Source: an uncultured Nitrospirota bacterium
GTDB lineage: Bacteria; Nitrospirota; Nitrospiria; 2-01-FULL-66-17
Assembly (NCBI GenBank): GCA_964570625.1
Contig: CAZMYW010000006.1
Span: 420 to 64,419 of the forward strand
Direction of reading: 5' to 3'
DNA length: 64,000 bases
The notes under the pieces were generated by a model, which worked only from the letters and a program-made list of their open reading frames with translations, was not told where the DNA came from and ran no database searches. Below are positions 24,525-45,411 of this stretch, one piece after another. Position numbers and translations under genes: made by a program. Within the stretch, counting starts at the first letter, position 1. Every line of letters begins with the position of its first letter.

Positions 24525-25847
24525 GTGTTGCAAATCAAACAATTTGTCCAGCGCGATCTCTGGACCACCGACCTTCGGTCGCTCTCCGTCGTGCCGCGCG
24601 TGGGCGTTCAGGCCATGCGCCTGGCCATCGCGGTGTCCCTGGAATTTCGCCATCGCTTGCTCGATGCCCGGGCCGCCGGCCTGGTCTACACCACCCTGCT
24701 GTCGCTGGTGCCGTTCCTCGCCGTGGTGTTTTCGGTGTTGAAGGGCTTCGGCGCGCACCACCAGATCGAACCCGTGTTGGCGCAGGTGCTGGAGCCGTTG
24801 GGCCCGAAGGGACAGGAAATCACCCAGCAGGTGATCGGGTTCGTGGACAACCTCAAAGTCGGGGTCCTCGGGGTGCTCGGGGTCGCGGGCCTCTTGTACA
24901 CCGCCTACTCGCTCATCGATAAGATCGAACAGTCGCTGAACGCGATCTGGCAGGTGCGCCGGGGACGATCCTGGACGCGCAAGTTCACCGACTATTTGAG
25001 CGTGCTGCTGGTCGGGCCGGTGCTGGTGGTCACGGCCCTGGGCCTGCTGGCGTCGGTCCAAAGCCAAACCCTGGTCCAACGCGTGATGGCATTCCAACCG
25101 CTGGGATCGTGGGTGGTTGCGCTGGCCCAGTTGGTCCCGTTTCTCCTGCTCGCCGTGGTCTTTGCGTTCATCTACAAGTTCGTACCCAACACCCGGGTCC
25201 ATTTTGCCTCGGCCCTGGTGGGCGGAATATCCGCCGCCGCGTTGTGGGGTCTGGCGGGCATGGCATTCGCGAAATTCGTCGCGGGATCGGGCCAATACGG
25301 CGCCATCTACTCCGGCTTCGCGATCGTGCTGTTGTTGCTGATCTGGCTCTACGCCGCGTGGCTGATCGTGCTGGTCGGCGCCCAGGTGGCGTTTTTCCAT
25401 CAACATCCGGCCGCGTATCAATCCACGTTGATGTGGCAACAACACACTTCTGCCCTGCGGGAACAGGTGGCCCTGAGAGTAGTGGCCGCGCTGACGCGAC
25501 GGTTTCTGGACGGCGCAGGCCCGGTTCGTGCGGCCGATCTGGCCAACGAACTCAACCTTCCGGCCTCCTTGGTGGAAGCGCAGGTGGACCAACTCGTGAC
25601 GCACGGCTTTCTCGGCCGCCTGAGCGAACCTGCCGGCGTGACCCTGATCAAACCACCCGACACCACGCCCATCAACGACGTGCTCGACGCGGTTCGGGAG
25701 GTCAAAGCCTCCGAAGTCATGATTCCGAACCACGCACACGACCCCATCACCGATGCGCTGCGCCGCCGCGATCAAGCCGCTGAACAAGCCCTCGCCGGGC
25801 TCACCCTGGAATCCTTGGTAACCGAACGTAATGATTCGGCACGATGA
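24525..25847 (+). CDS. YihY/BrkB-family inner-membrane protein with a ~130-aa C-terminal extension
   Basis: The family-typical N-terminus and six TM segments are present (AGLVYTTLLSLVPFLAVVFSVL...). Confidence 0.75.
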   Translation: MLQIKQFVQRDLWTTDLRSLSVVPRVGVQAMRLAIAVSLEFRHRLLDARAAGLVYTTLLSLVPFLAVVFSVLKGFGAHHQIEPVLAQVLEPLGPKGQEITQQVIGFVDNLKVGVLGVLGVAGLLYTAYSLIDKIEQSLNAIWQVRRGRSWTRKFTDYLSVLLVGPVLVVTALGLLASVQSQTLVQRVMAFQPLGSWVVALAQLVPFLLLAVVFAFIYKFVPNTRVHFASALVGGISAAALWGLAGMAFAKFVAGSGQYGAIYSGFAIVLLLLIWLYAAWLIVLVGAQVAFFHQHPAAYQSTLMWQQHTSALREQVALRVVAALTRRFLDGAGPVRAADLANELNLPASLVEAQVDQLVTHGFLGRLSEPAGVTLIKPPDTTPINDVLDAVREVKASEVMIPNHAHDPITDALRRRDQAAEQALAGLTLESLVTERNDSAR

Positions 25848-27010: not shown

Positions 27011-28045
27011 ATGAGTAAGATGAAGGTAGTCCAGGTCACCAAACCCAAGGGTCCCTTTGAACTCGTGGAACGCGAGATCCCCGAGCCCGGACCCGGACAC
27101 GTGCGGATCAAGGTCCAGGCGTGCGGCATCTGCCACAGCGACATGTACACCAAAGACGGCCTCTGGCCCGGTATTCAATTCCCGCGAATTCCGGGACACG
27201 AAGTCGCCGGGGTGATCGATGCGTTAGGCCAGAGCGTCAACGGATGGACCGTTGGCCAGCGCGTGGGCGTGGGTTGGCACGGCGGCCACTGCGGGTACTG
27301 CGATTCGTGCCGCCGCGGCGAATTCGTGACCTGCCAAATCGAAAACACCGTCACCGGCATCTCCCGCGACGGCGGCTACGCCGAATACATGATCGCCCAC
27401 GAAGGAACCCTGGCCAAAATCCCCGACGCCCTCACTCCTGAAGAAGCCGCGCCCTTGATGTGCGCCGGCGTTACCACCTACAACTCCCTGCGCAACAGCG
27501 GCGCGAGGGCCGGCGATACCGTGGCCGTGCTGGGCTTAGGCGGTCTCGGCCACCTGGGCGTGCAGTACGCGAACAACATGGGCATGAGAACCATTGCCCT
27601 GGCGCGGGGCAAAGATAAAGAACCCTTGGCCAAGAAACTCGGCGCGCATCATTATATAGACAGCCAGGCCACAGACCCCGCGGCAGAACTGATGAAGCTG
27701 GGCGGAGCCAGCATCATCCTGTCCACGGTCACGGACGCCAAAGCCGTGAACGCGGTCATGGGTGGATTGGGCCTGAACGGAAAACTCGTCATCGTAGGCG
27801 CCCCGCACGAACCCCTCTCCGTGTCCCCCGGTTTCCTCATCGGAGGACGCCGATCCATTGCGGGCTGGCCCTCCGGCTCGTCCATCGATTCGCAGGACAC
27901 GCTGGCGTTCAGCGCCTTGACTGGCGTGCGGTCAATGAACGAGGTCTTCCCTCTGGAGCGCGCATCAGAGGCCTACGATCACATGATGAGCGGCAAGGCA
28001 CGGTTTCGAGTCGTTCTGACAACCGGACCACAGGGTCGGTCGTGA
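27011..28045 (+). CDS. Zinc-dependent alcohol dehydrogenase (MDR family)
   Basis: GHEVAGVIDALG, the structural-zinc Cys cluster CGYCDSCRRGEFVTC, and the GLGGLGHLGVQYA Rossmann motif are present. Confidence 0.85.
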   Translation: MSKMKVVQVTKPKGPFELVEREIPEPGPGHVRIKVQACGICHSDMYTKDGLWPGIQFPRIPGHEVAGVIDALGQSVNGWTVGQRVGVGWHGGHCGYCDSCRRGEFVTCQIENTVTGISRDGGYAEYMIAHEGTLAKIPDALTPEEAAPLMCAGVTTYNSLRNSGARAGDTVAVLGLGGLGHLGVQYANNMGMRTIALARGKDKEPLAKKLGAHHYIDSQATDPAAELMKLGGASIILSTVTDAKAVNAVMGGLGLNGKLVIVGAPHEPLSVSPGFLIGGRRSIAGWPSGSSIDSQDTLAFSALTGVRSMNEVFPLERASEAYDHMMSGKARFRVVLTTGPQGRS

Positions 28046-28184
28046 AGCGGCACGAAATCAAGATTCAAATCCTGACCCTGCCGGTAAACCCAGTGGCTCG
28101 GCCTGTCGGCGACGAGAGCGCCTTCGGGACACGCTCCCCCGAGGGATCATCCCGAAAAAGCGGTTGACTCGAAGACTCCTCCCT

Positions 28185-28309
28185 TAACCCGGCTTATTCA
28201 TGAACCTTCTACTGTACCCGCGGATATTTCCTGCGCCTTGCGGCGCTAAGCATATTTCGCTGGCGTCTTCGCGGGTTCGTTACAAACGTTCATGAATAAG
28301 CCGGGTTAA
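28185..28309. repeat. Perfect 22-bp inverted repeat (TTAACCCGGCTTATTCATGAAC) with an 81-bp spacer, ending 5 nt before the start codon of the BcsZ-BcsA fusion gene
   Basis: The arms lie at 28185-28206 and 28288-28309 and were read directly from the sequence. Confidence 0.6.
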
Positions 28310-28314
28310 CCGAA

Positions 28315-31300
28315 ATGACAACTCGCTTGTTTTCGGTTCGAGGCCTCGTCCTCGTGGCCTTCTTGTCGATCACCTGTTCGTCCGGACAGGCGCAAACGCC
28401 CGATAGCCCCAGCGACGCGGCGATCCGGCAGGTGGATGAACTCTCCGCATTGTGGAGCTTCTACAAGCACACCTACATCGCGACCGGACGCGTGATCAGT
28501 TTGGACGAACAGGGCGTCACCACATCCGAAGGGCAAGGCTACGCCATGCTCCGCGCGGTGTGGTCGAACGATCGGATCACCTTTGCGGACGCCTGGAATT
28601 GGACGAAGCAGCATCTTCAGGTCCGGAGCGATCACCTCTTTGCCTGGAAGTGGAAAGGCAAAGTGCTCTCGCTCAATTCCGCCACTGACGCCGACACCGA
28701 CATTGCCCTGGCGCTGATTCTGGCCTCGCGGCGGTTTTCCGAGCCCGCCTATGAACAAGCGGCGCTGGACGTGCTGGATTCCATTTGGAACAAGGAAATT
28801 GCGAAGATCGGTCGTCAGTATTATGTGACCGCTGGAAACTGGGCGGTCCAGGAAGACTATCCCACGATTCATGTCGCGTACCTGGCCCCGTACGCGTATG
28901 AGATCTTCGCGAGCGTGGACGACCGATATCCGTGGAAACGGTTAGTTGACAGCTCTTATCAGATCCTCGAGTGGATCTATTCCGAGCAAAGGTTGCAGCT
29001 CCCACCGGAGATTCTGTTTCTCGATAAACAGACCGGCCGGTTCCTCTTGAAGCACCCCCGCACCGGAGCGTCGGCGTCCTTTGGTTACGACGCGTTTCCG
29101 ATCTTCTGGCGGGTCGCGCTGGATGCCCAGTGGTTCGGTCGGCCCCAGAGCGAGCTTCGTCGCACCATGCTCGCATTCTTTCAAGACGAGTGGCGAGCCC
29201 GCAAGGCATTCTCCGATCGGTACTCGATTGGTGGTCAGCCGCTGTCTCGGATCGAAGGGCTTCCCCTCTACGCCACGGTCCACGCACTCGCCCTCCAGGA
29301 GGACCAAGCCCTTGCCCGCCTCATCGGCAACGCGAAGCTGGACACGCTTCGTCAGAACGCGCTGGGCGGCCGCGCGACGCCCTATTACCTGCACAACTGG
29401 CTGTGGTTCGGGCGCGCCTTCGAACTCCAAGCGTTGCGGACGTACGATGAATTTCTGGGATTTCTGCGCCCGTTCGATTTCAAAGGATTCTCGGCTCACT
29501 TCCCGTGGGCGCTGTTCGCGGTGACGATCGCCCTCTTTTTCCTCGCCCGCGTTCATCCCCGTTTCAAGCTCGCCTTTCTGGTGTGCGGCTTCGCTCTCTG
29601 CGGGTACTACCTCGTCTGGCGCCTCTTCAACACGCTGAACTTCGTGGAAACCGCGGGACCGTTTATCAGCCTCTCGTTATGGGGGGCGGAATTGTATGCT
29701 TTTTCAACCGTGCTGCTGCTCCTCGTGCAGGTGGGGCTGGGCGGAAAGCAGAAGACGCATAATGCGCCGCCGCTGCCGGGATACTCGCCATCCGTCGACA
29801 TCCTGATTCCGATTTATCCCGAATCGTGCGAGATCCTCACGAAAACGCTGGTTGCGGCCCGCGCCATCGAGTACGCAAACAAGCGCGTCTACGTGCTGGA
29901 TGACGGCCACCGCCCCGAGGTGGCCCGCGTCGCGGGGCGATTCGGCGCCACATACATCAAAGGACCGCGAACGCACGCCAAAGCCGGCAATCTCAACCAT
30001 GCGTTGGACCAAACGCAGGGCGAGCTCGTGGCGGTGTTCGATACCGATCACATTCCCGTGACCACGTTCTTGAAAGAGACCGTGCCATTCTTTGCCGATC
30101 CCAAGATGGCGGTGGTACAGACCCCGCACCACTTTTACAACCCGGACATCTTCCAGCGGGCGTTCGGGGGCAGCGAGCAGATTCCGAACGAACAGGACAT
30201 GTTCAATCACGCGATTCAGAACGGGAGGGATGCCTGGAACGGGGCGTTCTTCGTCGGGAGCGGCGCCGTGTTCCGGCGCTCGGCCCTCGCCGACGTCAAC
30301 GGCTTCAATCTCATGAGCATGACGGAGGACATCCACACCAGCCAGCATCTGCACGCCGCAGGATGGCGCTCGGCGTTTCTCGATAAGGACCTGGCGGTCG
30401 GGCTCGCGGCCGAGAATCTGTCGTCGTATCTGGGGCAACGGAGACGCTGGATGCTCGGCTGCCTGCAGATCTTCTTCAAGGACAATCCCTTGATCCGCCG
30501 AGGCCTGACAACACGGCAACGGCTGGGTTATTTCGCGTCGCTCTACTATTTCTTCTTTCCGGTGACCCGGATGGTGTTCTGGATCACCCCTCTCTATTTT
30601 CTGCTGTTCCATTTCCATCCCATTCTCTCGGACGTCTCGGTCCTGGTCGCGTACTTGCTGCCCTTCATCATCATCCTGCCGCTGATCGCGAGCACGCTCT
30701 TGCCAGGCTGGCCGCGACTGTTCTGGGCCTCGGTGTATGAAGCCACGGTCAGCTTTCAGCTCTTTCGGTCCATGTTCGATCTCTTCCTGCCCAAACGACT
30801 GGGCTTCAAGGTCACCCCGAAGGGATTGCGGTCCCACACGCGGGCGTTCGACTCCACCTCCGCGACCCTGCCCCTCATCGCGACCGGGATCACGCTCGTG
30901 GCGATCGCCAAAGGCCTGTGGGAGTTCTTCTACTTCGGCATCGAAAAGGACGCCTACTTTTTCAACCTGAGCTGGGCCTCGCTCAACCTGTTGTTCCTAC
31001 TCGTCGGCCTCTTGGTCGCCTGGGAACGACCGCAGCAACGAAGCGCGGACCGGATCAAGAAGTCGGTGCCGTTCGAGCTGGAGCGCGCCGGTGTGTCGCT
31101 GACGGGAACCACCCACGACCTCAGCTTGTCCGGGCTCTCGTTCATGACCGCGTTAAACGAGCCCATCCCGCTGTTCGGGGAGATCACCCTCCGCGACCGC
31201 GACCCGATCACGTGCCGGTATCAGGTCGTGTACCATGAACGCGTCTCGCGCCGAGCGTCCCGGTGCGGGGTCGCGTTTCTGGATGTGTCTCACGATGACC

Positions 31301-31755
31301 GATGCAAGCTGATCGTCGATCTATTTGCCGATTCGGGAACCTGGAATGGGGCTCATGCAACCCGAGTGCGCAGCAATTTACTGATGGCCTTCCATCTGTT
31401 CCGAGGCATCGTGCGATGCCTGCGACCCTTGCAACGCCGCACCCGAACCTGCCCGCGGCGCAAGACCTTGCGCCGCATCTCGGTGCGGGTCGGGAGTGAC
31501 CAGCGGCACGTGCTCTTGAGAGACTGGTCGTCACGCGGGATCGGAATCCTGCACATCGGCAAGGAATGGCCTTCGACCACGGAGAGCGGGCTGTCGGCTG
31601 ACCGCTTCCACGACACACCGTTCCAAGAGGTCTATCAAAAACAGCTGCTGCCCCATGTGTGGCGCGTCGGGCTGCGCGTCGCCACTCGCCCCGTCGGTGA
31701 GGCGATCCCCGCTCCCGTGCAAGGGCGTGAGATGGCCTTGCACCAGGACCGTTAG
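28315..31755 (+). CDS. Multidomain exopolysaccharide synthase: GH8 BcsZ-like endoglucanase, TM region, processive GT2 (BcsA-like, QRRRW) and two C-terminal PilZ domains
   Basis: There is a signal peptide. GH8 motifs are present (TSEGQGYAMLRAV, DADTDIALALILA). GT2 motifs are present (VLDDGHRPE, VFDTDHIP, LGQRRRWMLG). PilZ #1 has RSADR...DLSLSG and PilZ #2 has RRKTLRR...DWSSRG. Confidence 0.8.
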   Translation: MTTRLFSVRGLVLVAFLSITCSSGQAQTPDSPSDAAIRQVDELSALWSFYKHTYIATGRVISLDEQGVTTSEGQGYAMLRAVWSNDRITFADAWNWTKQHLQVRSDHLFAWKWKGKVLSLNSATDADTDIALALILASRRFSEPAYEQAALDVLDSIWNKEIAKIGRQYYVTAGNWAVQEDYPTIHVAYLAPYAYEIFASVDDRYPWKRLVDSSYQILEWIYSEQRLQLPPEILFLDKQTGRFLLKHPRTGASASFGYDAFPIFWRVALDAQWFGRPQSELRRTMLAFFQDEWRARKAFSDRYSIGGQPLSRIEGLPLYATVHALALQEDQALARLIGNAKLDTLRQNALGGRATPYYLHNWLWFGRAFELQALRTYDEFLGFLRPFDFKGFSAHFPWALFAVTIALFFLARVHPRFKLAFLVCGFALCGYYLVWRLFNTLNFVETAGPFISLSLWGAELYAFSTVLLLLVQVGLGGKQKTHNAPPLPGYSPSVDILIPIYPESCEILTKTLVAARAIEYANKRVYVLDDGHRPEVARVAGRFGATYIKGPRTHAKAGNLNHALDQTQGELVAVFDTDHIPVTTFLKETVPFFADPKMAVVQTPHHFYNPDIFQRAFGGSEQIPNEQDMFNHAIQNGRDAWNGAFFVGSGAVFRRSALADVNGFNLMSMTEDIHTSQHLHAAGWRSAFLDKDLAVGLAAENLSSYLGQRRRWMLGCLQIFFKDNPLIRRGLTTRQRLGYFASLYYFFFPVTRMVFWITPLYFLLFHFHPILSDVSVLVAYLLPFIIILPLIASTLLPGWPRLFWASVYEATVSFQLFRSMFDLFLPKRLGFKVTPKGLRSHTRAFDSTSATLPLIATGITLVAIAKGLWEFFYFGIEKDAYFFNLSWASLNLLFLLVGLLVAWERPQQRSADRIKKSVPFELERAGVSLTGTTHDLSLSGLSFMTALNEPIPLFGEITLRDRDPITCRYQVVYHERVSRRASRCGVAFLDVSHDDRCKLIVDLFADSGTWNGAHATRVRSNLLMAFHLFRGIVRCLRPLQRRTRTCPRRKTLRRISVRVGSDQRHVLLRDWSSRGIGILHIGKEWPSTTESGLSADRFHDTPFQEVYQKQLLPHVWRVGLRVATRPVGEAIPAPVQGREMALHQDR

Positions 31756-31772
31756 ATCCCAGAGGGCTCTTC

Positions 31773-33350
31773 TTGGATTGGAGGAATACGCTTTTTGCGC
31801 TGTTGATGGTTCTCGCCATGCTCCTCAGTGCCGCCACTGCGTCCGCGGCAGGGTTCAGTGAATCCTGGTACATGTACCGGGGAAACGCCAACATCGAGAT
31901 CGGCAACTATAAGGCGGCCATCGAAGCCTTTGAAAAGGTCCTGGAGCTAAACCCGGACAATCGGGAAGCCATGCGAAGCCTTGGCCTGTCCTACGAGCGA
32001 CAAGGCTTGAAGGATAAATCTATCGAGCTGTTCGATCGTTATCTCCAGAAGTACGATGACGACCCGGAGATTGCCTTCAAACAAGCCGAAGCCCTGGAGT
32101 GGTCACGGTACGCGTACCGCGAAAAAGACGCCCTGAAATATTACCGGATGGGGCTGAAGCGACGAGATGACCCCAAACGGCGTCTCAAATACGCCTCACA
32201 TCTGGCCAAAACCCGGGAAACCAGCCAGGAAGCGGTGGTTCAGTACGAGCGGGTCATTGCGGTGCAGCCCCGCAATGCGGAGGCGCACCGCGGCCTTGCG
32301 AAAGCCCACGCCTGGCTCGGCGACCGCGACCGCGCCCTCTATCACGCGAACCTGGCGGACCGCTACGCGATGACGGAGACCGGCGATCTGACCGCGCTGC
32401 GCCGCGATATGACGAAGGGGCGCGAACCGACCCTTGAAGGCATCGTCGGATTCCTCGCTCAGCCCCAAGACCCCTTCGAGTTATATGCAGTCCGGCTGGG
32501 CTCGCGCGTCAAAGGCGACCTGACCCCGTTCACCACCACCACGCTCGAAGCCGGTCTCGAGTACTTTGGGGATTCATCCGAAAAGTCGACCGGCGGATAT
32601 CTTGCGTTCGGAACCCAGGCCCGCTTCAATCCGTCCAATCGAATCAATGGCATGTTGGAGTATCACGGCGCCGCGCTGGCCAATCCTCTGGCCTACACCC
32701 TTGAGTACACGTATGCCGCGGCGTCGTTCTCGTTTCGCCCGGGCGTCAAACGCGCGCTCAAATACGATTCCCTCCCCGCGCTAGTGGGGAGTCGGGTCTC
32801 CGGCCAACTCATCGGCGCCGCGCGCTCAACCTTGTTCTACACCGACCTGGCCGTTTCCAAAGGCAGCCTCCAGGTCAACGCCACGCCGTTTGCCGGCTGG
32901 GTCGACGGCGAGTCGCTCGCCAACAACGGGCAGGTGGGGCTGGATGCGAAAGTGGCCATGCCGTTCTGGAGCCGTGACACCTGGAACGTGTCCGGCGAAT
33001 ACCTCTTGTACCTGACCCACTACGCCAACGACCAATCAGAGTTCGATACCGGCGCGGCCCCCCTGGCCGGCTATTTCAGCCCCCGCCTGTTCGTCAATCA
33101 GACCCCGCGCCTGGTGGCCACGTACGTCTCACCCACCAAGAACGAGCTATCCGTGGCAGCAGGCCCGTCGATTCAGTATATCGACGAAGCCAGGAACGAC
33201 CCCGCGCTTCGAATCGGCGCGGATGCGCACGTCTCGTACACCGCCCGCGTGCCGGACCGCTTGCTCCTCAAATTCATGGCAGATCTAACCCAGATCACCG
33301 GCATCCAGACGCGCGTCCAGTTGCAGGGGCTCCTGGTGTACACGTTCTGA
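31773..33350 (+). CDS. TPR-repeat outer-membrane beta-barrel protein (BcsC/PgaA-like polysaccharide export porin, compact)
   Basis: A signal peptide and N-terminal TPR repeats are present (AIEAFEKVLELNPDNREAMRSLGLSYERQG). The C-terminal beta-strand-rich region ends in ...LLVYTF. Confidence 0.65.
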   Translation: MDWRNTLFALLMVLAMLLSAATASAAGFSESWYMYRGNANIEIGNYKAAIEAFEKVLELNPDNREAMRSLGLSYERQGLKDKSIELFDRYLQKYDDDPEIAFKQAEALEWSRYAYREKDALKYYRMGLKRRDDPKRRLKYASHLAKTRETSQEAVVQYERVIAVQPRNAEAHRGLAKAHAWLGDRDRALYHANLADRYAMTETGDLTALRRDMTKGREPTLEGIVGFLAQPQDPFELYAVRLGSRVKGDLTPFTTTTLEAGLEYFGDSSEKSTGGYLAFGTQARFNPSNRINGMLEYHGAALANPLAYTLEYTYAAASFSFRPGVKRALKYDSLPALVGSRVSGQLIGAARSTLFYTDLAVSKGSLQVNATPFAGWVDGESLANNGQVGLDAKVAMPFWSRDTWNVSGEYLLYLTHYANDQSEFDTGAAPLAGYFSPRLFVNQTPRLVATYVSPTKNELSVAAGPSIQYIDEARNDPALRIGADAHVSYTARVPDRLLLKFMADLTQITGIQTRVQLQGLLVYTF

Positions 33351-33489
33351 TCACCGACTCGTGATCCGGGAGGCGTCAAGGCCAGAATCTTGACATCCCG
33401 ATCAGGATGCGCGCAGAGTAACGCCCATGGCTCGACCGCTCGGAATCGACTATCCGGGCGCCGTCGACCACGTGAGCGGTGTCCTGATG

Positions 33490-33693
33490 GGCGGACGCCG
33501 ATCCATCACGGGCTGGCCGTCCGGATCGTCTATCGATTCGCAGGACACGCTGGCGTTCAGCGCCCTGACGGGCGTGCGGTCGATGAACGAGGTTTTCCCT
33601 CTGGAGCGCGCATCAGAGGCCTATGATCGGATGATGAGTGGCAAGGCACGGTTCCGAGTCGTGCTCACAACCGGGCATCACAGCGGGTCCTGA
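33490..33693 (+). pseudogene. Orphan 3'-terminal fragment of a zinc alcohol dehydrogenase gene (diverged duplicate of 27840-28045)
   Basis: About 90% nucleotide and about 93% amino-acid identity to the last ~65 codons of the ADH at 27011-28045, with no upstream ADH sequence. Confidence 0.7.
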
Positions 33694-33840
33694 GACGAAA
33701 AGACCTTATCCCAACGCAAGGCCTGGTCCTCAGTCCCCCACTGAATCGAGGGAGCTACCCTCAGAAGCCTAGTTTGGAATCCACCGATAGAGCCCTCTAG
33801 GCTGAGTAGAGTCGGGCTCGTATCTTGGAGCGGGCATCCA

Positions 33841-36800
33841 GTGCCTTCTCCCAACCTTCAAACAAAAGTACTTCGACGCAAGACCACGCCAGAGGAGTAC
33901 CGCGTGTATCGGGCGGGCCTCGAATGGGACTTAACCGATCCCATAGTTATCGAGACGCGCAAGGACCTGAAATCTGAATATCTTTGGCGTGACCGGATGG
34001 AGCCCTATCATCATCAGGTCACAAATCTCATCACCTTCTGCCGCCGCCTGCCGGTCACGCTGCTCGCCGACGACGTCGGTCTCGGCAAAACGATTAGCGC
34101 CGGGCTGATCATCAGCGAGCTAATCTCCCGCTCCCGTCTTTCCAGGATTCTTATTGTCTGCCCCAAGCTGCTCGGCCCGCAGTGGCAGGAGGAACTGCTC
34201 ACGAAATTCAACATTCCTTCTGAGATTGCGATCGGGAGAGACCTGATCAAAGCTGATCCCGAGGGAACCGGTGCCGTCATCACAACCTATCATTCGGCGC
34301 GCCTGCATCTCGATCCAATCCCGAAGGATCGTTTCCAGATGCTGGTGTTGGATGAGGCGCACAAGCTGCGAAACCTCTATGGCGTCGAAAAACCCCCGCA
34401 GGTGGCCAAGCGTTTCCGGAAGGCCCTGGAAGAGCGCCGGTTTCGCTTCGTCCTTATGCTGACCGCGACGCCGATACAGAACCGCCTGTGGGATCTCTAT
34501 TCGTTGGTCGATCTGTTGACCGTTGCGCGTGGGCACCAAAACCCCTTTGGCAGCGAGGACATGTTTGCTCGGAAGTTCATCGCCGACAATCGGGAGCAGA
34601 CCCGCCAGTTGAAGCCGGAAGCGCGCGACGAGTTCCGATCGATTGTCTACGGCTACATGTCGAGGGTCCGGCGCGGAGACGCCAGGCTCTATTTCCCGGA
34701 CCGAGTCGTGCAAATGCACAAGGTCGACCCCACAGCGGCAGAGTTGCAGCTGATCGACGCTATCGCCAAGCCGATCCAGAAACTGAACCGGCTCGCGCAA
34801 ATTTCGATCCTGCAGGCTCTCACTAGTAGCCCAGATGCGTTGATGGCACAGTTGAACAACATGGCAAAGAACGGCACTGTTCCTGAGGAGCTTGCCGCGA
34901 CGGTCCGCGCCATCGTCACCGGAATGCCCACCAGCGCCAAGCTTCATGGGCTCGGCGGGCTGATCGACAGACTAAAACGGGAGAATCCGGAACGCTGGCG
35001 GCTCGTCGTATTCACAGGACGGCTAGAGACCCAGACCACCATCCAAGCCTTCCTGGAAAAGTACGGCCTCAAGGTCGGGATAATCAACGGTATGTCCGGC
35101 CCGCGTAATCAGGAGACCATCACGCGTTTCAGAAAAAACCCGCCTGATTCCCACGTTATCGTGTCTACCGAAGCTGGATCCGAGGGCATCAACCTTCAAG
35201 TCGCCAACGTACTGGTCAACTACGACCTGCCCTGGAACCCAATGATCGTCGAACAGCGTATCGGACGCGTACAACGCTTGGCGTCCGAGCATGCGAGCGT
35301 CGGTATTTTCAACATCATGCTGCGTGGTACCTTCGAGGAGTACATCGTTGGACGCTTGATGGAAAAACTTCAGATGGCGTCCCACGCGATCGGCGATATT
35401 GAATCGCTGCTCGAAGCATCCGGAATCAGTGGAGAGGATGAGGACGGGGCAACGAGCTTTGACGAGAAGATCCGCCAGCTCGTCATAGCGGCGCTCGCAG
35501 GCAAGGACGTGGAGGCAGCAACACGCCAGGAGGAGCAAAGTATTGCCAATGCGAAGAGCGCTCTGGAGCGCGAGGAAGAGAGCATCAACACCCTACTCGG
35601 CGGAATGGATGGAGCCGAGTATGTCGGACCTCGCGCGCCGGCCCTGCCCGGCGTCGTGCGATCTATGGAGCCGCGCGATTTCACTCTGGCAGCCTTAAGG
35701 AGTCTTGGCGCGCGTATCACGCCGCAACCGCCGGATCTGTATCTGGCGGAAGGAAACGGCGGACGTGAACACATCCGTTTTGAGGAAAACGCTGGCGCAG
35801 GCGTAAAAAGCACCCTCTACGCTCCCGGCACTGCCGCCTTCATCCGGCTAGTCGGTCGGATCATTGCAACCGGCGTTTATGAAGTAGAAGACCTCGACCA
35901 AAATCCAGCCAAAGAGGCCGAGGAACTCGCCCGCCGGTGGGTCCTGGCCTTCAGCGGAACGCCCAAGGCAGTAGAGGTCGAAGAGGTGCGCCGTTGTTTC
36001 GAAGGGACGGCTCTCGTCCGAGTGCGCGCCACGGTTGCGCATGACAGCTATGAGCGCCTCGTGGAAGTTTCCTGTTCATCGGCAGAGTACTATGCTGATA
36101 CAGGCCGATCAGGGCTTGGCCCCTTGTCTCAGACAATTGAGAATCCCAACGCCCTTGGGATCAACATCGACAGATTGGCTGACGCTGCAAAATTGGATGG
36201 GGCAATCTCCGAATTCTCCCGCTTCTACTTGGAAAGGCGAGCACAGGAAATGCAGGCCGCAGCCGGGGATGAGCGGAAAAAAAAGAGGCTAGAGGATGAG
36301 TTCACCCCCCGCCTTGAAATGACGCTGGTTGCGCTCGAAGGAAGGCTGCACCGCCAGCTAAGAGTTAAAGCGCAATACACGCTTGATGCTGAAGCCGATT
36401 ACCATAGTTTGCTGACCGTTATACCGCATACGGGAAGATGGGTCGATGCTCCAGAAATGGGGCTCTGCGCTCGATCGGGCAAGACTGTTCCTAAGACGTG
36501 CCTCAAGCAATGTCAGATCGCGGGGGCGGTGGTGCTGCAGCATCTCCTCGCCCGGTCCGAGATGAGTTCAAGGCTTGCGCTGCCGGAATTTACGGTCCTG
36601 TGCAGCCTAAGTGGCAAGCGCGTTCTCAAGGACGAAGCCGAGTTGTCAACGGTGAGTAGACAGCTGGTCGCAAGCTCACTCCTTAAGACTTCGGTTCTAA
36701 GCGGGCAGCGGGCAGAACCCAGTCATTTTGGTCAGTGCGAATTTACTAAAGCCGAGGTTCTCAATACCGAGCTTGCCATTAGCGAAGTGTCGGGTAAGCG

Positions 36801-37539
36801 CTATCGCGTCGATGAGCAAGTGCGATCGGTTGTTTCTGGAAAGACGGGCCACAGGTCGGAGTTTCTGATCTGCCATGAGACCCGACAGCCCTTAATTGTG
36901 TCGGAAGCCGAGCAATGCAGGGTCACCGGTATGTACGTTCGGCCGGGAATCTTGGAGCCATGTGCGATCACGCAGACGCGGGTACTGCCCTCGGAGCTTG
37001 AGCGTTGCGCTGCTACCGGCAAGCGCGCGCTAAAGAAGCTGTTGGTGACGAGCAGCTTGTCGGAAGCGCGCATTCTGGAGGATGTTGCTGTGCGGTCGGC
37101 TACTGGAAAATTTTGTGCGCCGGTTGAAACCAAGACTTGTCTTTGGAGTGGCCGGAAGTGCCATCCAGATGATCTTCGCGCGTGCGCGCTGACTGGCCTT
37201 CCTATCCACTTTGAATTTGCCACGACAAATGGTAAACCCCGTCTCCAGCCGCTTGTCGACCTGCTCAACGGCATCAAGAGAACCGCGGACGAGCCCAAGT
37301 TGTGGGACACCGTAGCGACCGAGATCACAGCGAAACTCGGGAAGGGGTGGTGCCGTGTGGAGGCTGCGGTTCTTTCACCAGATAGGCGGCATCTTGCAGT
37401 CTGCTCCGAGGTCCGTACGTTGCTCGGCTTCCGGGTGAATCAAGCTGGTTTGGTGTACGCCATCGGAGACCATTCCATCCTTGGTCGAACGGCTCAAGGG
37501 CGTCGTACTTCCGAGGGATGGTCAGAGGTCAAAAGCTAG
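33841..37539 (+). CDS. SNF2-family helicase (RapA/HepA-like ATPase core) with a ~600-aa C-terminal domain containing ~10 tandem Cys-rich 16-17-aa repeats
   Basis: SNF2 motifs I (LLADDVGLGKT), II (LVLDEAHKLRN) and III (LMLTATPIQN) are present, with a helicase C domain (VSTEAGSEGINLQ, QRIGRVQR). The C-terminal repeats follow the pattern [CS]xx[ST]GK[RT]. An alternative start is ATG 33997 (MEPYHHQ). Confidence 0.8.
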   Translation: MPSPNLQTKVLRRKTTPEEYRVYRAGLEWDLTDPIVIETRKDLKSEYLWRDRMEPYHHQVTNLITFCRRLPVTLLADDVGLGKTISAGLIISELISRSRLSRILIVCPKLLGPQWQEELLTKFNIPSEIAIGRDLIKADPEGTGAVITTYHSARLHLDPIPKDRFQMLVLDEAHKLRNLYGVEKPPQVAKRFRKALEERRFRFVLMLTATPIQNRLWDLYSLVDLLTVARGHQNPFGSEDMFARKFIADNREQTRQLKPEARDEFRSIVYGYMSRVRRGDARLYFPDRVVQMHKVDPTAAELQLIDAIAKPIQKLNRLAQISILQALTSSPDALMAQLNNMAKNGTVPEELAATVRAIVTGMPTSAKLHGLGGLIDRLKRENPERWRLVVFTGRLETQTTIQAFLEKYGLKVGIINGMSGPRNQETITRFRKNPPDSHVIVSTEAGSEGINLQVANVLVNYDLPWNPMIVEQRIGRVQRLASEHASVGIFNIMLRGTFEEYIVGRLMEKLQMASHAIGDIESLLEASGISGEDEDGATSFDEKIRQLVIAALAGKDVEAATRQEEQSIANAKSALEREEESINTLLGGMDGAEYVGPRAPALPGVVRSMEPRDFTLAALRSLGARITPQPPDLYLAEGNGGREHIRFEENAGAGVKSTLYAPGTAAFIRLVGRIIATGVYEVEDLDQNPAKEAEELARRWVLAFSGTPKAVEVEEVRRCFEGTALVRVRATVAHDSYERLVEVSCSSAEYYADTGRSGLGPLSQTIENPNALGINIDRLADAAKLDGAISEFSRFYLERRAQEMQAAAGDERKKKRLEDEFTPRLEMTLVALEGRLHRQLRVKAQYTLDAEADYHSLLTVIPHTGRWVDAPEMGLCARSGKTVPKTCLKQCQIAGAVVLQHLLARSEMSSRLALPEFTVLCSLSGKRVLKDEAELSTVSRQLVASSLLKTSVLSGQRAEPSHFGQCEFTKAEVLNTELAISEVSGKRYRVDEQVRSVVSGKTGHRSEFLICHETRQPLIVSEAEQCRVTGMYVRPGILEPCAITQTRVLPSELERCAATGKRALKKLLVTSSLSEARILEDVAVRSATGKFCAPVETKTCLWSGRKCHPDDLRACALTGLPIHFEFATTNGKPRLQPLVDLLNGIKRTADEPKLWDTVATEITAKLGKGWCRVEAAVLSPDRRHLAVCSEVRTLLGFRVNQAGLVYAIGDHSILGRTAQGRRTSEGWSEVKS

Positions 37540-37675
37540 TGGCTCCTCACGCGCCACGGTAAAGCGCCATAGGCGCGAGTACGATCCGGTAGCAAGGGTA
37601 AAGCCGGTCGCGGCGTGGATCGACCGCGATGAAGGTCAGAGAGCCAATTCCACTATTCCGTTGGGGGAGGCCCAC

Positions 37676-39355
37676 GTGGATAAGGAAACTGCTTTCGCTA
37701 GAGCGACTTCGGGGGGTTCGCAAGTTCCTGAAGATTGGATGCCAGCAACGGGAACACGTGCTTTTGTATTTGAGGATCCTATTCTCATTTGGCTGGAATT
37801 TCACGGCGAAGCGAATGGATTTCAGAAAGACGCCTCATCGCCCTACGATTTCATGACGTTTATCTTCGAAAAGGGAAGGCAGTTCGAAAATAAGTGGATT
37901 TCTGAATTTGCTCCAGAGGCAATACGCGTTTGCTCGCACGCGTATGAGGTTCGCCGAGTCGAAAGATTCCACCAAACACTCGACCTTATTGAGCGCGGCA
38001 CTCCGGTTATCGCAGGCCCCGCTCTTTGGTGGGCTCCAGAAAAAATATTGGGAGTCCCGGACCTTTTGGTGCGGAGTGACTGGCTTAGTAAGCGCTTACC
38101 GAATACCCGTGTTCAATCAGAATCGGCTGAGCATTACGTGGTGTTGGACATGAAATTCACGACGAAACTCGACTCGACAGAGAAAAAGTTGTCGTTTTCG
38201 AACTACGAGGCACAGGTGAGAATCTACTCTTACATAGTCGGCCAGCTTACGGGTGTAATGGCCCCCCACTCCTTTCTAGTTTGCCGCGACCGGATCGACA
38301 ATCCGCTCGATGTCCCGACCCATTCAGCCATCGGTCCTCTTGATGAGGATCTCCGTAGATTCCGCGAATCTTACCTCGACATTAAGCTCAAGGGTGGCGC
38401 GTACCGACCGGGAATAGACTCTCAGATTGCGGTGAACCTATCAAACGACCAAGATGATCCTTGGCATACGGCAAAGATCGAGATTGCAAGAAACCGAGTA
38501 CCCGGTGGTGACCCATGCCTCGTTTATGAAATCGGGGCGACACAGCGGCAGGCACTTGCAGACAGAGGATTCGGAAATCTGAAGGCCCTCATGGAAATTG
38601 TTCCGGAACAAATCCCTCTGGAATCTTGCAAGGGCCTCGGGGCTGCCAAATGTCCGCGAATCCGGGCCGTGCTGCGAGCAAACCAGACAGGAACGGTTAC
38701 CCGTAACAAACCAACGCGTCTGCCGGTTGAAAAGTCAGTCGAGCTTTACGTCGACTTCGAGACATTCAACAACCTCAACGTCAACTTCGACAGAGAATGG
38801 CCCACGCTCCAAGGCTGTGAAATGATCTTCATGATTGGTGTCGCATGGGTGGAGAACAATAGCTTGCGATATCAAGCGGTCATCGCCGATACCGAGAGCC
38901 AAGCAGGCGAACGTCGGCTTTTGGAAGATTTCGAGAAGCTCATTCGCTCCCGAACAAATGGTTCGACTGTCGATCCGTCATCCACGGCTCTGGTCCACTG
39001 GACAAGCGCCGAAGTCTGGCAGCTTAAACGGGCCTGTGACCGACAGGGCTTCGAGGCGAGTCATCCGCTCAGAAATCTCCCGTGGTTCGATCTTCAAAAG
39101 GAAGTCTTCCTCGCAGAACCAATCGGTGTCCCGGGGGCATGGGGTTACGGAATTAAAGAGGTTGTGCTTTCGCTAGGACTACTCCAATGGCCTGGGGATC
39201 TGGATGACGGTCTCCGCGCCAGTGTCGCCGGATGGAAAGGTTATCAATCAAGCAAACCCCTTGAGTCTTCCGATATGCAGATCGTGGTGCAGTACAACGA
39301 GGTGGATTGCAACGCACTACACGAAGTCGTGAAGTGGCTTCGCCGATCGGCCTGA
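37676..39355 (+). CDS. RecB-family PD-(D/E)xK nuclease fused to a C-terminal RNase-H-like (DnaQ-type) domain (TM0106-like)
   Basis: The nuclease motifs are GVPDLLVRSD and VVLDMKFTTK (D...D-x-K). The C-terminal domain begins YVDFETFNN (DxE). The start was set at GTG 37676, which follows a strong SD (GGGGGAGG) and avoids overlap with the SNF2 gene. Confidence 0.65.
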   Translation: MDKETAFARATSGGSQVPEDWMPATGTRAFVFEDPILIWLEFHGEANGFQKDASSPYDFMTFIFEKGRQFENKWISEFAPEAIRVCSHAYEVRRVERFHQTLDLIERGTPVIAGPALWWAPEKILGVPDLLVRSDWLSKRLPNTRVQSESAEHYVVLDMKFTTKLDSTEKKLSFSNYEAQVRIYSYIVGQLTGVMAPHSFLVCRDRIDNPLDVPTHSAIGPLDEDLRRFRESYLDIKLKGGAYRPGIDSQIAVNLSNDQDDPWHTAKIEIARNRVPGGDPCLVYEIGATQRQALADRGFGNLKALMEIVPEQIPLESCKGLGAAKCPRIRAVLRANQTGTVTRNKPTRLPVEKSVELYVDFETFNNLNVNFDREWPTLQGCEMIFMIGVAWVENNSLRYQAVIADTESQAGERRLLEDFEKLIRSRTNGSTVDPSSTALVHWTSAEVWQLKRACDRQGFEASHPLRNLPWFDLQKEVFLAEPIGVPGAWGYGIKEVVLSLGLLQWPGDLDDGLRASVAGWKGYQSSKPLESSDMQIVVQYNEVDCNALHEVVKWLRRSA

Positions 39356-39434
39356 AAAGGGGACGGGAAAGGTGTCAGGAACCATTTTAAAGATGGTCCT
39401 AATCTCCCACCAAGGGCAGCCTCGGGGGTCACAG

Positions 39435-39467
39435 CCTCGGGGGTCAGGCTTGACTCTGTTGACTAGG
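39435..39467 (+). repeat. Direct repeat A (CCTCGGGGGTCAGGCTTGACTCTGTTGACTAGG), preceded by a 16-bp tandem duplication; contains two TTGACT -35-like hexamers
   Basis: Second copy lies at 40285-40314. The two copies flank the gene 39524-40270. Confidence 0.6.
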
Positions 39468-39523
39468 CGGGGCTTGTAGACGTTGCGGCATTAGTGGCGT
39501 TGCTTACGACTCCGGGGATAGCG

Positions 39524-40270
39524 ATGACAACCCAAACCAAAAAAGTACTGGTCGGCGCGGCAATCGTCCTGATCGTCGCCCTCGTTGGCGGTGTCTGGTG
39601 GGTCTACCACTCGCTTGATCGGCTGGTGGCGTCCGCGATCCGCACGTTCGGCCCCGAGATCACCGGCGTCTCGATCTCCTTGGACCGGGTGAAGATCGAT
39701 GCGCTGGATGGTCACGCTGAGTTGTACGGCCTGGTGGTCGGCAATCCCAGAGGCTTTTCCACCGATCACGCACTCTCGCTCGGCGAAATTCGCATGACGC
39801 TCGACCTCGCGTCGCTGACCAAGGACGTGATCGTCATCAAGCAGATCGCGATCGTGAAGTCCGCCGTCACCTATGAGCTCGGCGCTGACGGCAGTAACCT
39901 GGGGGCAATCCAGCGCAACGTGGACCGCTACGTGGGGCGACCCCGCGCGGCCAACACGTCCCAACCGGAATCCGAGTCGGGCAAGAAACTCGTGATCGAA
40001 GATCTGACCATCAAGAACGCCACGGCCACGGTCAGCACCGCGGTCATGCGCGGCCCGCCCGTCTCAGTGCCGATCCCTGACTTGCATCTCCGAGATATCG
40101 GCAAACAATCCGGCGGCGCCACCGCCGGAGAAGCGGTCCAGCAGGTCCTGGCCGCCCTCACGCTGAGCGTGACCCAGGCGGTCGCGTCGCGAAACCTCGG
40201 GGGATTGATCGACACGCTGAAGAAAGATCCCGCTTCGGCCGTGGACACACTCAAAGGGTTGTTTCGATGA
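39524..40270 (+). CDS. Hypothetical membrane-anchored protein (DUF748/AsmA-like)
   Basis: It has an N-terminal TM anchor (VLVGAAIVLIVALVGGVWWVY) and a periplasmic beta-rich region. The family assignment is tentative. Confidence 0.5.
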   Translation: MTTQTKKVLVGAAIVLIVALVGGVWWVYHSLDRLVASAIRTFGPEITGVSISLDRVKIDALDGHAELYGLVVGNPRGFSTDHALSLGEIRMTLDLASLTKDVIVIKQIAIVKSAVTYELGADGSNLGAIQRNVDRYVGRPRAANTSQPESESGKKLVIEDLTIKNATATVSTAVMRGPPVSVPIPDLHLRDIGKQSGGATAGEAVQQVLAALTLSVTQAVASRNLGGLIDTLKKDPASAVDTLKGLFR

Positions 40271-40284
40271 CAGGGGATGCACAA

Positions 40285-40314
40285 CCTCGGGGTCAGACTT
40301 GACTCGTTGACTTT
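40285..40314 (+). repeat. Direct repeat B (CCTCGGGGTCAGACTTGACTCGTTGACTTT); possible promoter for tag
   Basis: 28 of 30 matches to the repeat at 39435-39467. Confidence 0.6.
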
Positions 40315-40377
40315 GCAATACCGCTCAGTGCTAACCTCACGCTCGACGCCGCTCCGGTGTTGGCCGGGCCTGCACGC

Positions 40378-40993
40378 CATGACCAAACGTCGCTTACGCC
40401 AACCATCCACACCGCTCTCCGCGGCCGTCACCCGATGCCCCTGGCCCACGCCCGGCGACGCGCTCTATTTGGCCTACCACGATCAGGAATGGGGCGTGCC
40501 GGTTCACGACGACCGCACGATCTTCGAGTTTCTGGTCCTCGAAGCCTTCCAAGCTGGGCTATCGTGGCGCACGATCCTACATAAGCGGGAGAATTTCCGG
40601 AAGGCATTCGCCGGATTCGATTACCGCAAGGTGGCGCGCTTCGGCCGTCGGGACGTAGCCCGCCTGCTCAAGGATGCGGGCATTGTCCGCAACCGCCTGA
40701 AGATCGAGGCCGCCATCACCAACGCCCAGCACTTCATCGAAGTGCGCGCGGAACATGGCACCTTCGCGGCCTATATGTGGTCGTGGGTGAAGGGCAAGCC
40801 GATCGTGCACCACTTCCGAACAATTAAGGATTATCCGACCGCTATCGACGAAGCCGTGGCATGGTCCAAGGACTTGAAGTGGCGCGGCTTTAAGTTTCTC
40901 GGTCCCACGGTGGTCTACGCCCACATGCAGGCCGTGGGTATGGTGAACGACCACACCGTCGATTGCTTCTGTCGCGTCACGCCCAGGAAATAA
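40378..40993 (+). CDS. tag: DNA-3-methyladenine glycosylase I
   Basis: The Tag signature is present (RCPWPTPGDALYLAYHDQEWGVP ... FEFLVLEAFQAGLSWRTIL). Confidence 0.85.
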
Positions 40994-41154
40994 CTCCACC
41001 CCCACAATGCGTTCAGCTCTGCCCCCGGTGGGATGCCCGGTTGACGGGTGCGGACGGCGCCTGCTATCGTGCGGCCATGTTGACGGAATCTCTGGATCTG
41101 CCCCATTAACACCCTGTGTCTCACCCGCGTGTGGTTCTCTGACACTGCGAAATC

Positions 41155-42297: not shown

Positions 42298-42374
42298 GCA
42301 TGGACGGCCGTTTCCGATCGCCTCACTCCGTTCGGCCGGTTCGGTGACAATCCCTTCATCGTCAAGCACGTCCC

Positions 42375-43748: not shown

Positions 43749-43801
43749 CCCCACTCCCCCGCCACATCCGATCGCCGTAGGATCGGGGAGCAACAACCAG
43801 G

Positions 43802-44488
43802 TCAGTGCCGTTTTAGCCGGTACTTGAGGACGCACCACAGCGCCCAAACTCCGTCTTTCCACCCGATCTTTTTGCCCTCGGTGTAATCTCTCCCGCTGTA
43901 AGAAATGCCGATTTCATAAATTCGCCAACGTTTCCGCGCAACCTTTGCCGTAAACTCGGGCTCAAACCCGAACCGATCCTGCTCGAGCCTTAATCCGCGC
44001 AACACGTCGGTACGGAACATTTTGTAACACGTTTCCATATCGGTCAGATTGAGATTTGTGAGCATATTGGACAGTAGCGTCAAGAATTTGTTGCCCACGG
44101 AGTGCCAAAACAACAACACTCGATGCTCGTCGGCCGTCAGAAAACGAGACCCGTAGACCACGTCGGCGCGGCCGTCCAAGATTGGCTTGATGAGGCGATG
44201 ATATTCCTCGGGATTATACTCGGTATCCGCGTCCTGAATAACCACCACCTCTCCGGTAACCTTCTCAAATCCTGTCCGGAGCGCCGCGCCCTTCCCTCTA
44301 TTTTTGTCATGATAGAAGACCTGAACGTCCACGTCTGATATCGCTCGCAGGAGCTCTCTCGTTCCATCGGTCGAACCGTCATCGACGACAATGATCTCCT
44401 TCTCGATGGCGACTTTCTGCACGCGCCTGATGATTGCGACAACGGTCGGGGCTTCGTTAAAAACCGGTATGACAACCGATAGTTTCAT
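43802..44488 (-). CDS. GT2 polyprenol-phosphate sugar transferase (DPM1/ArnC-like)
   Basis: [16 protein letters not shown]...[10 protein letters not shown]...[14 protein letters not shown] match the family. Confidence 0.8.
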
Positions 44489-45080: not shown

Positions 45081-45161
45081 TCAATACAATAGCTTAAATC
45101 CTCGACAGATAAGTTTCCCGACGGCGATCGGCCATAGCTCCCCCGAATCCGCCTCTTCCCC

Positions 45162-45398: not shown

Positions 45399-45411
45399 AA
45401 AAATTCTGACT

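Follow-up and report, generated by a model that had tools for sequence, protein, structure and literature searches.

We analysed a stretch of 64,000 nucleotides (nt), referred to here as the window, from an uncultured Nitrospirota bacterium (contig CAZMYW010000006.1 of assembly GCA_964570625.1, positions 420 to 64,419), in which two adjacent genes on the forward strand appear to encode a polysaccharide synthase and its exporter. The first gene (28315..31755, +) starts with an ATG and forms one open reading frame (ORF) of 1146 amino acids (aa) with no internal stop. The second (31773..33350, +) starts 18 nt past the stop codon of the first and encodes a protein of 525 aa, which we call mini-BcsC. 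An earlier reading of this DNA, made from its letters and ORFs without database searches (the sequence-only reading), had described the pair as a minimal two-gene exopolysaccharide synthase and exporter gated by cyclic di-GMP (c-di-GMP). The domain identities, residue conservation, gene pairing and phyletic spread reported below were computed, conservation being scored in a family alignment of 50 homologues.

The synthase begins with a signal peptide (28315..28392, aa 1 to about 26, MTTRLFSVRGLVLVAFLSITCSSGQA) whose hydrophobic segment covers aa 5-23. Then come an (α/α)6 endoglucanase domain of glycoside hydrolase family 8 (GH8; Pfam PF01270) resembling BcsZ and CMCax (28408..29424, aa ~32-370), a linker that is near-invariant in the family (29425..29499, aa 371-395, ...YDEFLGFLRPFDF...), three transmembrane (TM) helices that AlphaFold2 modelling, hydropathy and alignment with BcsA identify as counterparts of BcsA TM2-4 (29500..29739, aa 396-475), and a predicted cytoplasmic catalytic domain of glycosyltransferase family 2 (GT2), in which Pfam GT2 models and BcsA alignments place the BcsA signature motifs (29782..30474, aa 490-720). 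The C-terminal TM and interface helices, equivalent to the BcsA TM5-8 region and containing the gating loop FKVTPKG (aa 831-837), lie at 30511..31023. They precede a canonical PilZ domain with the motifs R909xxxR913 and D935xS937xxG940 (31027..31329, aa 905-1005, Pfam PF07238) and a second, divergent PilZ-like β-domain with R1044xxxR1048 and D1070xS1072xxG1075 (31435..31680, aa ~1041-1122); all these features are on the + strand.

Pfam profiles recovered the enzymatic parts and the first PilZ domain at strong E-values: Glyco_hydro_8 at aa 46-297 (E = 7.2e-33), GT2 families at aa 493-768 (E down to 1e-22), Cellulose_synt at aa 665-793 (E = 8e-14) and PilZ at aa 907-999 (E = 2.9e-13). Hydropathy indicated the signal peptide and seven TM segments, three between GH8 and GT2 and four after the GT domain. 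Together, these two analyses reproduced the order that the sequence-only reading had assigned to the 1146-aa ORF, namely signal peptide and GH8, TM helices, GT2 and PilZ region. The motifs it had quoted are also present (TSEGQ with E72, DADTD with D125/127/129, DDG, DTD and QRRRW), and their key residues are invariant or at least 90% conserved in the 50 homologues. The AlphaFold2 model is continuous and confident, with a predicted local distance difference test score (pLDDT) of 85 and a predicted template-modelling score (pTM) of 0.72; it places the TM helices before the GT domain at 398-410, 415-439 and 448-473. A signal-peptide-like N-terminus was seen in all 17 homologues inspected, some of which have a lipobox-like Cys.

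The core of the protein is of the BcsA type. Residues 400-943 align with E. coli BcsA (E = 2e-93, about 545 aa) and residues 403-947 with R. sphaeroides BcsA 53-621 (E = 5e-81). Identity to characterised BcsA over the core is 29-30%, and Foldseek superposed the synthase model on BcsA 4p00_A with a TM-score of 0.79. Six motifs are in register with both BcsAs: DDG 529-531, HAKAGNLN 554-561, DTDH 576-579, FFVGS 645-649, TED 670-672 and QRRRW 708-712; their key residues are either invariant or at least 90% conserved among the 50 homologues. The processive GT2 motif set that defines BcsA (D, DxD, TED, QxxRW, HxKAGN, FFCGS) is thus present, and its gating elements (PilZ, the FxVTxK loop and the counterparts of Arg580 and Glu371) are found at the residue level. 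Indeed, R909 (the tether Arg) and R913 of the PilZ RxxxR motif correspond to R580 and R584 of R. sphaeroides BcsA, F831-K-V-T-P-K836 corresponds to its gating loop FxVTxK, and E700 to its E371, which we take, from the published BcsA structures, to be the partner of R580 in the autoinhibitory tether. We trust this numbering because R580xxxR584 falls at its expected place in the alignment. E700, F831 and K836 occur in 50/50 homologues, R909 and R913 are invariant, and the full motif of the first PilZ domain is complete in 46 of the 50. From these conserved residues, gating of the synthase by c-di-GMP is predicted. The N-terminal region departs from BcsA, which has eight TM helices and a cytoplasmic N-terminus: the GT domain has just three TM helices before it here and an equivalent of BcsA TM1 is missing. 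Scores against the NCBIfam equivalogs were 518.6 bits for CelA (TIGR03030; cut-off 699.1) and 397.9 bits for BcsA (NF008558; cut-off 992).

Since the three TM helices align from BcsA residue 53 onwards, the signal peptide and GH8 replacing TM1, the GH8 domain is predicted to be exported to the periplasm. It has the (α/α)6 fold and the catalytic Glu and Asp of BcsZ; it is fused rather than a separate soluble protein, and scores 92.8 bits against BcsZ NF008305 (cut-off 299). Among PDB sequences it matched CMCax 1wzz (E = 1.7e-22), CelA (1.4e-19) and BcsZ 3qxf (1.8e-13), with Foldseek TM-scores of 0.79-0.83 against CMCax and BcsZ. The nearest solved GH8 structures are those of the cellulose-synthesis enzymes CMCax and 6vc5 (Komagataeibacter), then CelA and BcsZ; the β-1,3-1,4-glucanase 5xd0 and xylanases were also among the matches, the xylanases being far weaker. 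E72 aligns with the catalytic acid Glu95 of C. thermocellum CelA, and D259 with the base Asp278; the Q found in the Glu95 column of the 1kwf sequence is presumably the E95Q mutant. Because E72 and D129 are kept in 50/50 homologues and D259 in 49/50, across phyla, we predict that the domain has retained hydrolysis. No other part of the protein is as well conserved or as specific to the family as the GH8-TM junction, and the linker (aa 371-395) may serve to dock GH8 on the synthase.

Two tandem PilZ domains had been proposed at the C-terminus. The first stands on its Pfam match; the second is better described as a divergent PilZ-like domain (aa ~1041-1122), a designation supported by motifs, profile alignment, modelling and homologues. 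Its two motifs are canonically spaced, and 44/50 homologues have them in full; the conserved RxxxR is R1044-T-C-P-R1048, and not the RRKTLRR (1048-1054) previously named as the motif. With hhalign, the second domain aligned to the PilZ1 of the family across 86 columns, the two motifs staying in register (probability 77%, E = 2e-5), while alignment of the second domain to the single C-terminus of P0256, a GH8-less relative, was weak (E = 0.049). Searching the PDB with a profile of the C-terminal domain returned nothing relevant. AlphaFold2 built six strands with pLDDT 78-89 and set DxSxxG at the junction of strands 2 and 3, as in PilZ1. In the GH8-less proteins P0256 and P0266, the domain at the same position is recognised by Pfam as PilZ (E = 7e-9 and 3e-9, 36-37 bits). 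The second domain is missing in a Nitrospiraceae subclade with proteins of ~1040 aa (e.g. L007), in some Fibrobacterota and in the one-ORF forms of Myxococcota described below; as a subclade lacks it, it is dispensable. The PilZ domains are predicted to bind c-di-GMP. Elsewhere in the window, 24 kb from the synthase, 1398-4289 (+) encodes a 963-aa PAS-PAS-GGDEF-EAL protein that makes or degrades c-di-GMP. This gene shows that c-di-GMP signalling is present, and it could provide input to a PilZ-gated synthase.

Mini-BcsC has a signal peptide (aa 1-25), about five tetratricopeptide repeats (TPRs; aa 30-214, nt 31860-32414, +) and an outer-membrane barrel that AlphaFold2 predicts to have 16 strands (aa 220-525, nt 32430-33347, +). 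Pfam matched TPRs in the N-terminal part (E down to 9e-17) and BCSC_C (PF05420) marginally at aa 314-473 (25.3 bits, cut-off 23.5). The model (pLDDT 92.8) consists of ~11 helices, forming the ~5 TPRs, and then 16 strands at aa 220-524. E. coli BcsC structures (9b8a, 9b8h, 6tzk) were its best Foldseek matches (E 1e-19 to 1e-16), followed by PelB and PgaA. The small TPR/β-barrel partner, earlier likened to BcsC or PgaA, is thus borne out by modelling and structural comparison, with BcsC ranking first. It shares with BcsC the signal peptide, the TPRs and the C-terminal 16-stranded barrel. It differs in having ~5 instead of ~19 TPRs, scores 23.6 bits against NF008520 (cut-off 858), and finds no BcsB in the window on which to dock. 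Exporters of Nitrospira are ~527 aa long; those of other phyla reach ~660-800 aa, contain more TPRs and are matched by BCSC_C more often.

Synthase, hydrolase and exporter all bear on the nature of the polymer. The same machinery might make a product other than cellulose, e.g. a mixed-linkage β-1,3/1,4-glucan, a curdlan-like or a modified glucan, for which GH8 would be specific. The modest identity of the core to characterised BcsA and its failure to reach the equivalog cut-offs for CelA and BcsA leave room for this, as do the breadth of GH8, which includes lichenases, chitosanases and xylanases, and the presence of 5xd0 and xylanases among the matches. Moreover, the BcsB-less BcsA-like synthases BgsA and CrdS make non-cellulose glucans. 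We nevertheless consider such a product rather unlikely: CMCax and 6vc5 come ahead of CelA and BcsZ as the nearest solved GH8s, with xylanases far behind, the exporter is nearer BcsC than PelB or PgaA and carries Pfam BCSC_C, and the acceptor-site motifs of BcsA (FFxGS, QxxRW, TED) are all intact.

The fusion is not confined to this genome. A search of 5.8 billion proteins gave 351 matches at E<=1e-10 (clusters at 90% identity). Among the matches listed, at least 120 protein clusters are near-full or full length (1036-1214 aa), 55-89% identical and have the same Pfam set; they come mostly from Nitrospira and other Nitrospirota, including the finished N. moscoviensis genome, and also from Zixibacteria, Myxococcota and Thermodesulfobacteriota. 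In their sources they are simply called 'glycosyl hydrolase family 8' or 'cellulose synthase (UDP-forming)'. At 50% clustering, about 8 representatives are full-length GH8 fusions. We also scanned 185,579 species, one genome per species, with two peptide motifs of the GH8-TM junction (the linker motif and TPYYLHNW). This retrieved only family members and revealed the fusion in 97 species-level genomes, the majority from Nitrospirota, with others from KSB1, Myxococcota (including the cultured Anaeromyxobacter terrae), Fibrobacterota and Desulfobacterota; further carriers are Oligoflexales, Spirochaetaceae and Gammaproteobacteria metagenome-assembled genomes (MAGs). The closest relative (L005) is a Nitrospirota MAG with 88% aa identity and the same upstream alcohol dehydrogenase gene. 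The family is compact in sequence and broad in taxonomy. That the 1146-aa ORF results from an assembly error or frameshift joining bcsZ and bcsA, which would have undone the sequence-only reading, has a negligible probability: the ~1140-aa architecture is shared by these clusters and genomes, among them the complete N. moscoviensis chromosome, the junction is the most conserved region, and the model runs through it continuously and with confidence.

The two genes also travel together. Of 84 loci compared by tblastn, 61 extend at least 2.2 kb beyond the synthase, and in 59 of these the exporter gene comes immediately after it. This pairing spans at least seven phyla with otherwise unrelated flanks, and apart from the pair nothing is common to the annotated neighbourhoods of three phyla. 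De novo clustering of the neighbouring ORFs at the 84 loci found no third gene conserved across phyla; the other sizeable clusters were rejected as antisense ORF artefacts or as synteny within the Nitrospira lineage (YdbH-like and MR_MLE genes, among others). In two Myxococcota species (MAG loci L077 7299-12284 and L081 7299-12284, 81% DNA identity), the whole trans-envelope system is encoded by one uninterrupted ORF of 1661 aa with GH8, GT2, PilZ, an internal segment resembling a signal peptide, TPRs and a BcsC-type barrel in this order. The exporter signal-peptide-like segment (…ALLPALLVMGVCSSAHA, followed by EG…) comes directly after the helix homologous to aa 1021-1035 and stands in place of the second PilZ domain. 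Four 50%-cluster representatives of 1517-1996 aa (P0242-P0245) match the family profile only to position ~1040; three of them have GH8, GT2, PilZ and TPR by Pfam, with no BCSC_C barrel match, and they look like the same kind of one-ORF fusion. Such Rosetta-stone fusions suggest that synthase and exporter act together. The proposal of a minimal two-gene system is thus strengthened by the pairing, by the lack of any other conserved neighbour and by the Myxococcota fusions.

On this basis, we think it likely that the two genes constitute a self-contained, BcsB-independent and c-di-GMP-gated Bcs-type system, which probably makes cellulose and has its cellulase tethered at the channel exit. The topology, enzymatic activities, polymer identity, c-di-GMP binding, GH8-TPR contact and BcsB independence that we infer can be combined in the following scheme. 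The GT2 core would polymerise UDP-glucose into a β-glucan, most likely β-1,4-linked (cellulose), and thread the chain through the synthase's own seven-helix channel, as in BcsA. At rest, R909 of the first PilZ domain would pair with E700, and the gating loop F831-K836 would be held over the active site; c-di-GMP bound to PilZ1 would break the R909-E700 tether, so that the loop opens and synthesis is switched on. The second PilZ-like domain might act as an extra c-di-GMP site or concentrate c-di-GMP locally, and thereby tune the threshold. Because it is covalently tethered through the linker to the helix equivalent to BcsA TM2, GH8 would stand at the channel exit in a 1:1 ratio, where it could trim or clear chains that fail to engage the exporter, a role assigned to free BcsZ in E. 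coli. The roughly five TPRs of mini-BcsC, presumably docked on GH8, would capture the chain and pass it through the 16-stranded barrel; the short TPR arm and GH8 may jointly span the periplasm. In E. coli, the first TPR of BcsC docks on BcsB, and secretion depends on hydrolysis by BcsZ rather than on the presence of the protein as such (PMC11379886), a requirement with which the proposed chain-clearing role of GH8 agrees.

Several observations weigh against this interpretation. BcsB has been reported as indispensable for BcsA activity (PMC9693552, PMC5070118), and its absence is established for the 64-kb window, so that a bcsB gene may lie elsewhere in the genome. All the NCBIfam equivalog scores (CelA, BcsA, BcsZ and BcsC) are below their cut-offs, which leaves orthology, and hence the product, presumptive. 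Pfam did not match the second PilZ domain even when the C-terminal 117 and 142 aa were scanned alone at E<=1. The position of GH8 over the channel and its contact with the TPRs are predictions, and a hairpin before the start codon could mean that this copy is poorly expressed.

The first of these points leads to the possibility that a BcsB-like or other inner-membrane partner is encoded at a distance and required, the cassette being only part of the machine. Besides the reported need of BcsA catalysis for BcsB, the extent of the regions covered (64 kb of the source genome and +/-8 kb around the homologues) speaks for it. So does a 1050-aa ORF of N. moscoviensis (L001 4852-8004) with ~8 hydrophobic segments, which overlaps the start of the fusion synthase by 4 nt. 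Considered as a possible BcsB substitute, this multi-TM ORF was rejected as a component of the family, as it has no Pfam domain and is confined to N. moscoviensis and one close relative (L049). As the sequence-only reading had claimed, no bcsB accompanies the pair: Pfam found no BcsB domain in any of the window's 13 ORFs that are 525 aa or longer. The lack of a third conserved neighbour and the N-terminus unlike that of BcsA, with a signal peptide and GH8 in place of TM1, also argue against a distant partner; the one-ORF fusions suggest that the parts present suffice, and cellulose synthases without BcsB are known from cyanobacteria and plants (PMC8892547). A required distant partner therefore seems improbable to us.

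If BcsB is absent, the guiding and docking roles would most naturally fall to GH8 with its rigid conserved linker, and in the self-contained system proposed above GH8 probably also assumes the scaffolding and docking role of BcsB. In its extreme form, this idea makes GH8 mainly structural: it would bind carbohydrate as a guide, or serve as a docking platform, in place of the periplasmic domains of BcsB, and hydrolysis would be irrelevant. The highly conserved GH8-TM linker, suggestive of rigid docking, and the absence of BcsB, normally the chain guide and the dock of BcsC (PMC11379886), are in line with it. The invariance of E72 and D129 and the conservation of D259 argue instead for retained hydrolysis, and E. 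coli BcsZ matters through its activity (PMC11379886). A purely structural GH8 is for us decidedly improbable, the more so as structural and hydrolytic roles are compatible and the tethered-cellulase interpretation includes both. A bolder version of that interpretation, which we put forward only tentatively and hold to be somewhat doubtful, is that the protein is a truly BcsB-independent cellulose synthase, in which GH8 structurally replaces BcsB by stabilising the exit, guiding the chain and docking the TPR arm, and proofreads in cis at 1:1, while the tandem PilZ domains form a two-site c-di-GMP switch. If this were true, the synthase/mini-BcsC pair, or the Myxococcota polypeptide joining Z, A and C, would be the smallest complete machine known to secrete cellulose across the envelope of a diderm.

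The ORF starts at 28315 and not at 28185, where the sequence-only reading had placed the beginning of the locus. Positions 28185-28314 are non-coding and contain a palindromic hairpin of 126 nt (28184..28309, +), which is flanked by TTAA, has 25-nt terminal inverted repeats and ends 5 nt before the synthase ATG. Its arms (28184-28208 and 28285-28309) are 96% complementary, and the predicted RNA folds at -63.5 kcal/mol (z=-6.6). The hairpin is single-copy in the window and missing in the closest relative, L005, whose intergenic gap measures ~27 nt; an exact-match scan of metagenome contigs with its terminal repeat gave 0 matches. It looks like an insertion of the miniature inverted-repeat transposable element type and probably lies outside the conserved system, although it could occlude the ribosome-binding region or affect expression. 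Rfam matched neither the hairpin nor any c-di-GMP or other riboswitch in 27500-34500 at E<=1, and a scan of 27900-33900 for promoters and terminators found none above shuffle expectation.

None of the genes flanking the locus has to do with polysaccharide synthesis: those upstream encode a dUTPase and a Zn-dependent alcohol dehydrogenase, and those downstream an SNF2 helicase and an RNase-H-like protein. The latter two, a 1232-aa SNF2/helicase and an overlapping 624-aa protein of the RNase_H_2 superfamily, open a stretch of lower GC content (33841-46000, 0.54-0.59 against ~0.62-0.67 in much of the window) that begins directly downstream of the exporter gene and may be an acquired defence or mobile island. 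Upstream, 24525-25847 (+) encodes a 440-aa protein with the unusual pairing of a BrkB/YihY-type membrane domain (aa 47-293) and a C-terminal Rrf2-type transcription-regulator domain (aa 314-433). The window also contains a second synthase-dependent exopolysaccharide locus (53874-62729) that looks like those for poly-N-acetylglucosamine (PNAG): it comprises a GH18-like protein (53874-54989, +), a 1448-aa protein with a long TPR array and a polysaccharide deacetylase domain (54986-59332, -) and a 621-aa GT2 resembling chitin synthase and PgaC (60864-62729, -).

The family touches on two questions of cellulose secretion. The biological function of BcsZ is still called unknown, clearance of untranslocatable cellulose having been proposed (PMC11379886). 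This question, and that of the need of BcsA for BcsB, would both be answered here by design, with a cellulase tethered 1:1 and BcsB absent, and both could be tested in a two-gene system or, in some Myxococcota, a one-gene system. As a minimal unit, the cassette is also attractive for structural studies and for the engineering of cellulose production. Since most of the family comes from Nitrospira, which comprises the main nitrite oxidisers and the comammox bacteria of wastewater biofilms and flocs, the system is a candidate determinant of their characteristic dense microcolonies. This significance is read from annotation, and we found no experimentally studied member. The literature searchable here (full text and reviews) describes neither a GH8-BcsA fusion nor cellulose synthesis in Nitrospira. 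The arrangement can thus be called undescribed, as had been suggested, with respect to that literature; the databases already hold hundreds of automatically annotated members.

Compared with canonical Bcs systems (E. coli bcsRQABZC and R. sphaeroides BcsA-BcsB; 4p00, 9b8v, 3qxf, 9b8a), the cassette shares a processive GT2 with its own channel, the residues of PilZ/c-di-GMP gating, a periplasmic GH8 endoglucanase and an outer-membrane porin with TPRs and 16 strands. In contrast to these systems, GH8 forms the N-terminal part of the synthase rather than a protein of its own, seven TM helices and a signal peptide replace the eight TM helices, a PilZ-like domain is added, the exporter has ~5 TPRs instead of ~19, and BcsB, BcsQ/R/E/F/G/D are absent from the locus. 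Bcs operons with the core bcsAB are classified as type I by BcsD, type II by BcsE/G and type III by BcsK without BcsD/E/G (PMC8892547); neither this core nor these markers were found beside the pair, in the window or at related loci. Cellulose-machine subunits joined in one polypeptide are known as BcsAB (Komagataeibacter, Acidobacteriales, Zymomonas) and BcsZC (Zymomonas) (PMC7112194, PMC9693552), but in the present case the fusion links Z to A across the membrane, B is absent, and in two Myxococcota Z, A and C form one ORF. Neither the Z-A nor the Z-A-C arrangement was found in these two papers or in the 2021 FEMS review (PMC8892547).

The closest relatives without the fusion are synthases with tandem PilZ domains and no GH8, e.g. 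Acidobacteriota MEE9231170.1 (P0256, 756 aa), which is 40% identical over 659 aa. These proteins of ~756-768 aa (P0256, P0266 and those of the Acidobacteriota loci L085 4417-8271 and L086 531-4385) share the N-terminus with three TM helices, have two PilZ domains detectable by Pfam and match the family profile through position ~1122. The P0256 gene likewise adjoins a gene for a TPR protein, of ~526 aa, and has no BcsB nearby; BLASTP between that protein and the window exporter showed no meaningful similarity. A broader, uncharacterised clade of BcsB-less synthases with tandem PilZ domains may thus exist.

The hydrolase-like domain of the ascidian cellulose synthase is C-terminal and belongs to a different GH family. 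That enzyme, the only synthase noted to carry a glycosyl hydrolase domain (PMC8892547), shares with ours the union of synthase and glycoside hydrolase in one polypeptide; it differs in being eukaryotic and in lacking PilZ and an outer-membrane exporter. BcsA-like synthases operating without BcsB are also found in plants (CesA) and in cyanobacteria, where the synthase has an HlyD-like partner and a TolC-like exporter (PMC8892547). Export in the cyanobacterial system thus relies on a membrane-fusion protein and TolC, whereas the present cassette has a BcsC-type TPR porin and an attached GH8. Finally, in the Pel and PNAG systems (PelB-PelA, PgaA-PgaB), whose porins are the next-best structural matches of our exporter, a TPR-porin exporter likewise cooperates with a periplasmic hydrolase (PMC8892547). 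Their synthases and polymers are of other families, and their hydrolase binds the TPRs or is fused to a deacetylase, whereas in the family described here it is fused to the synthase.

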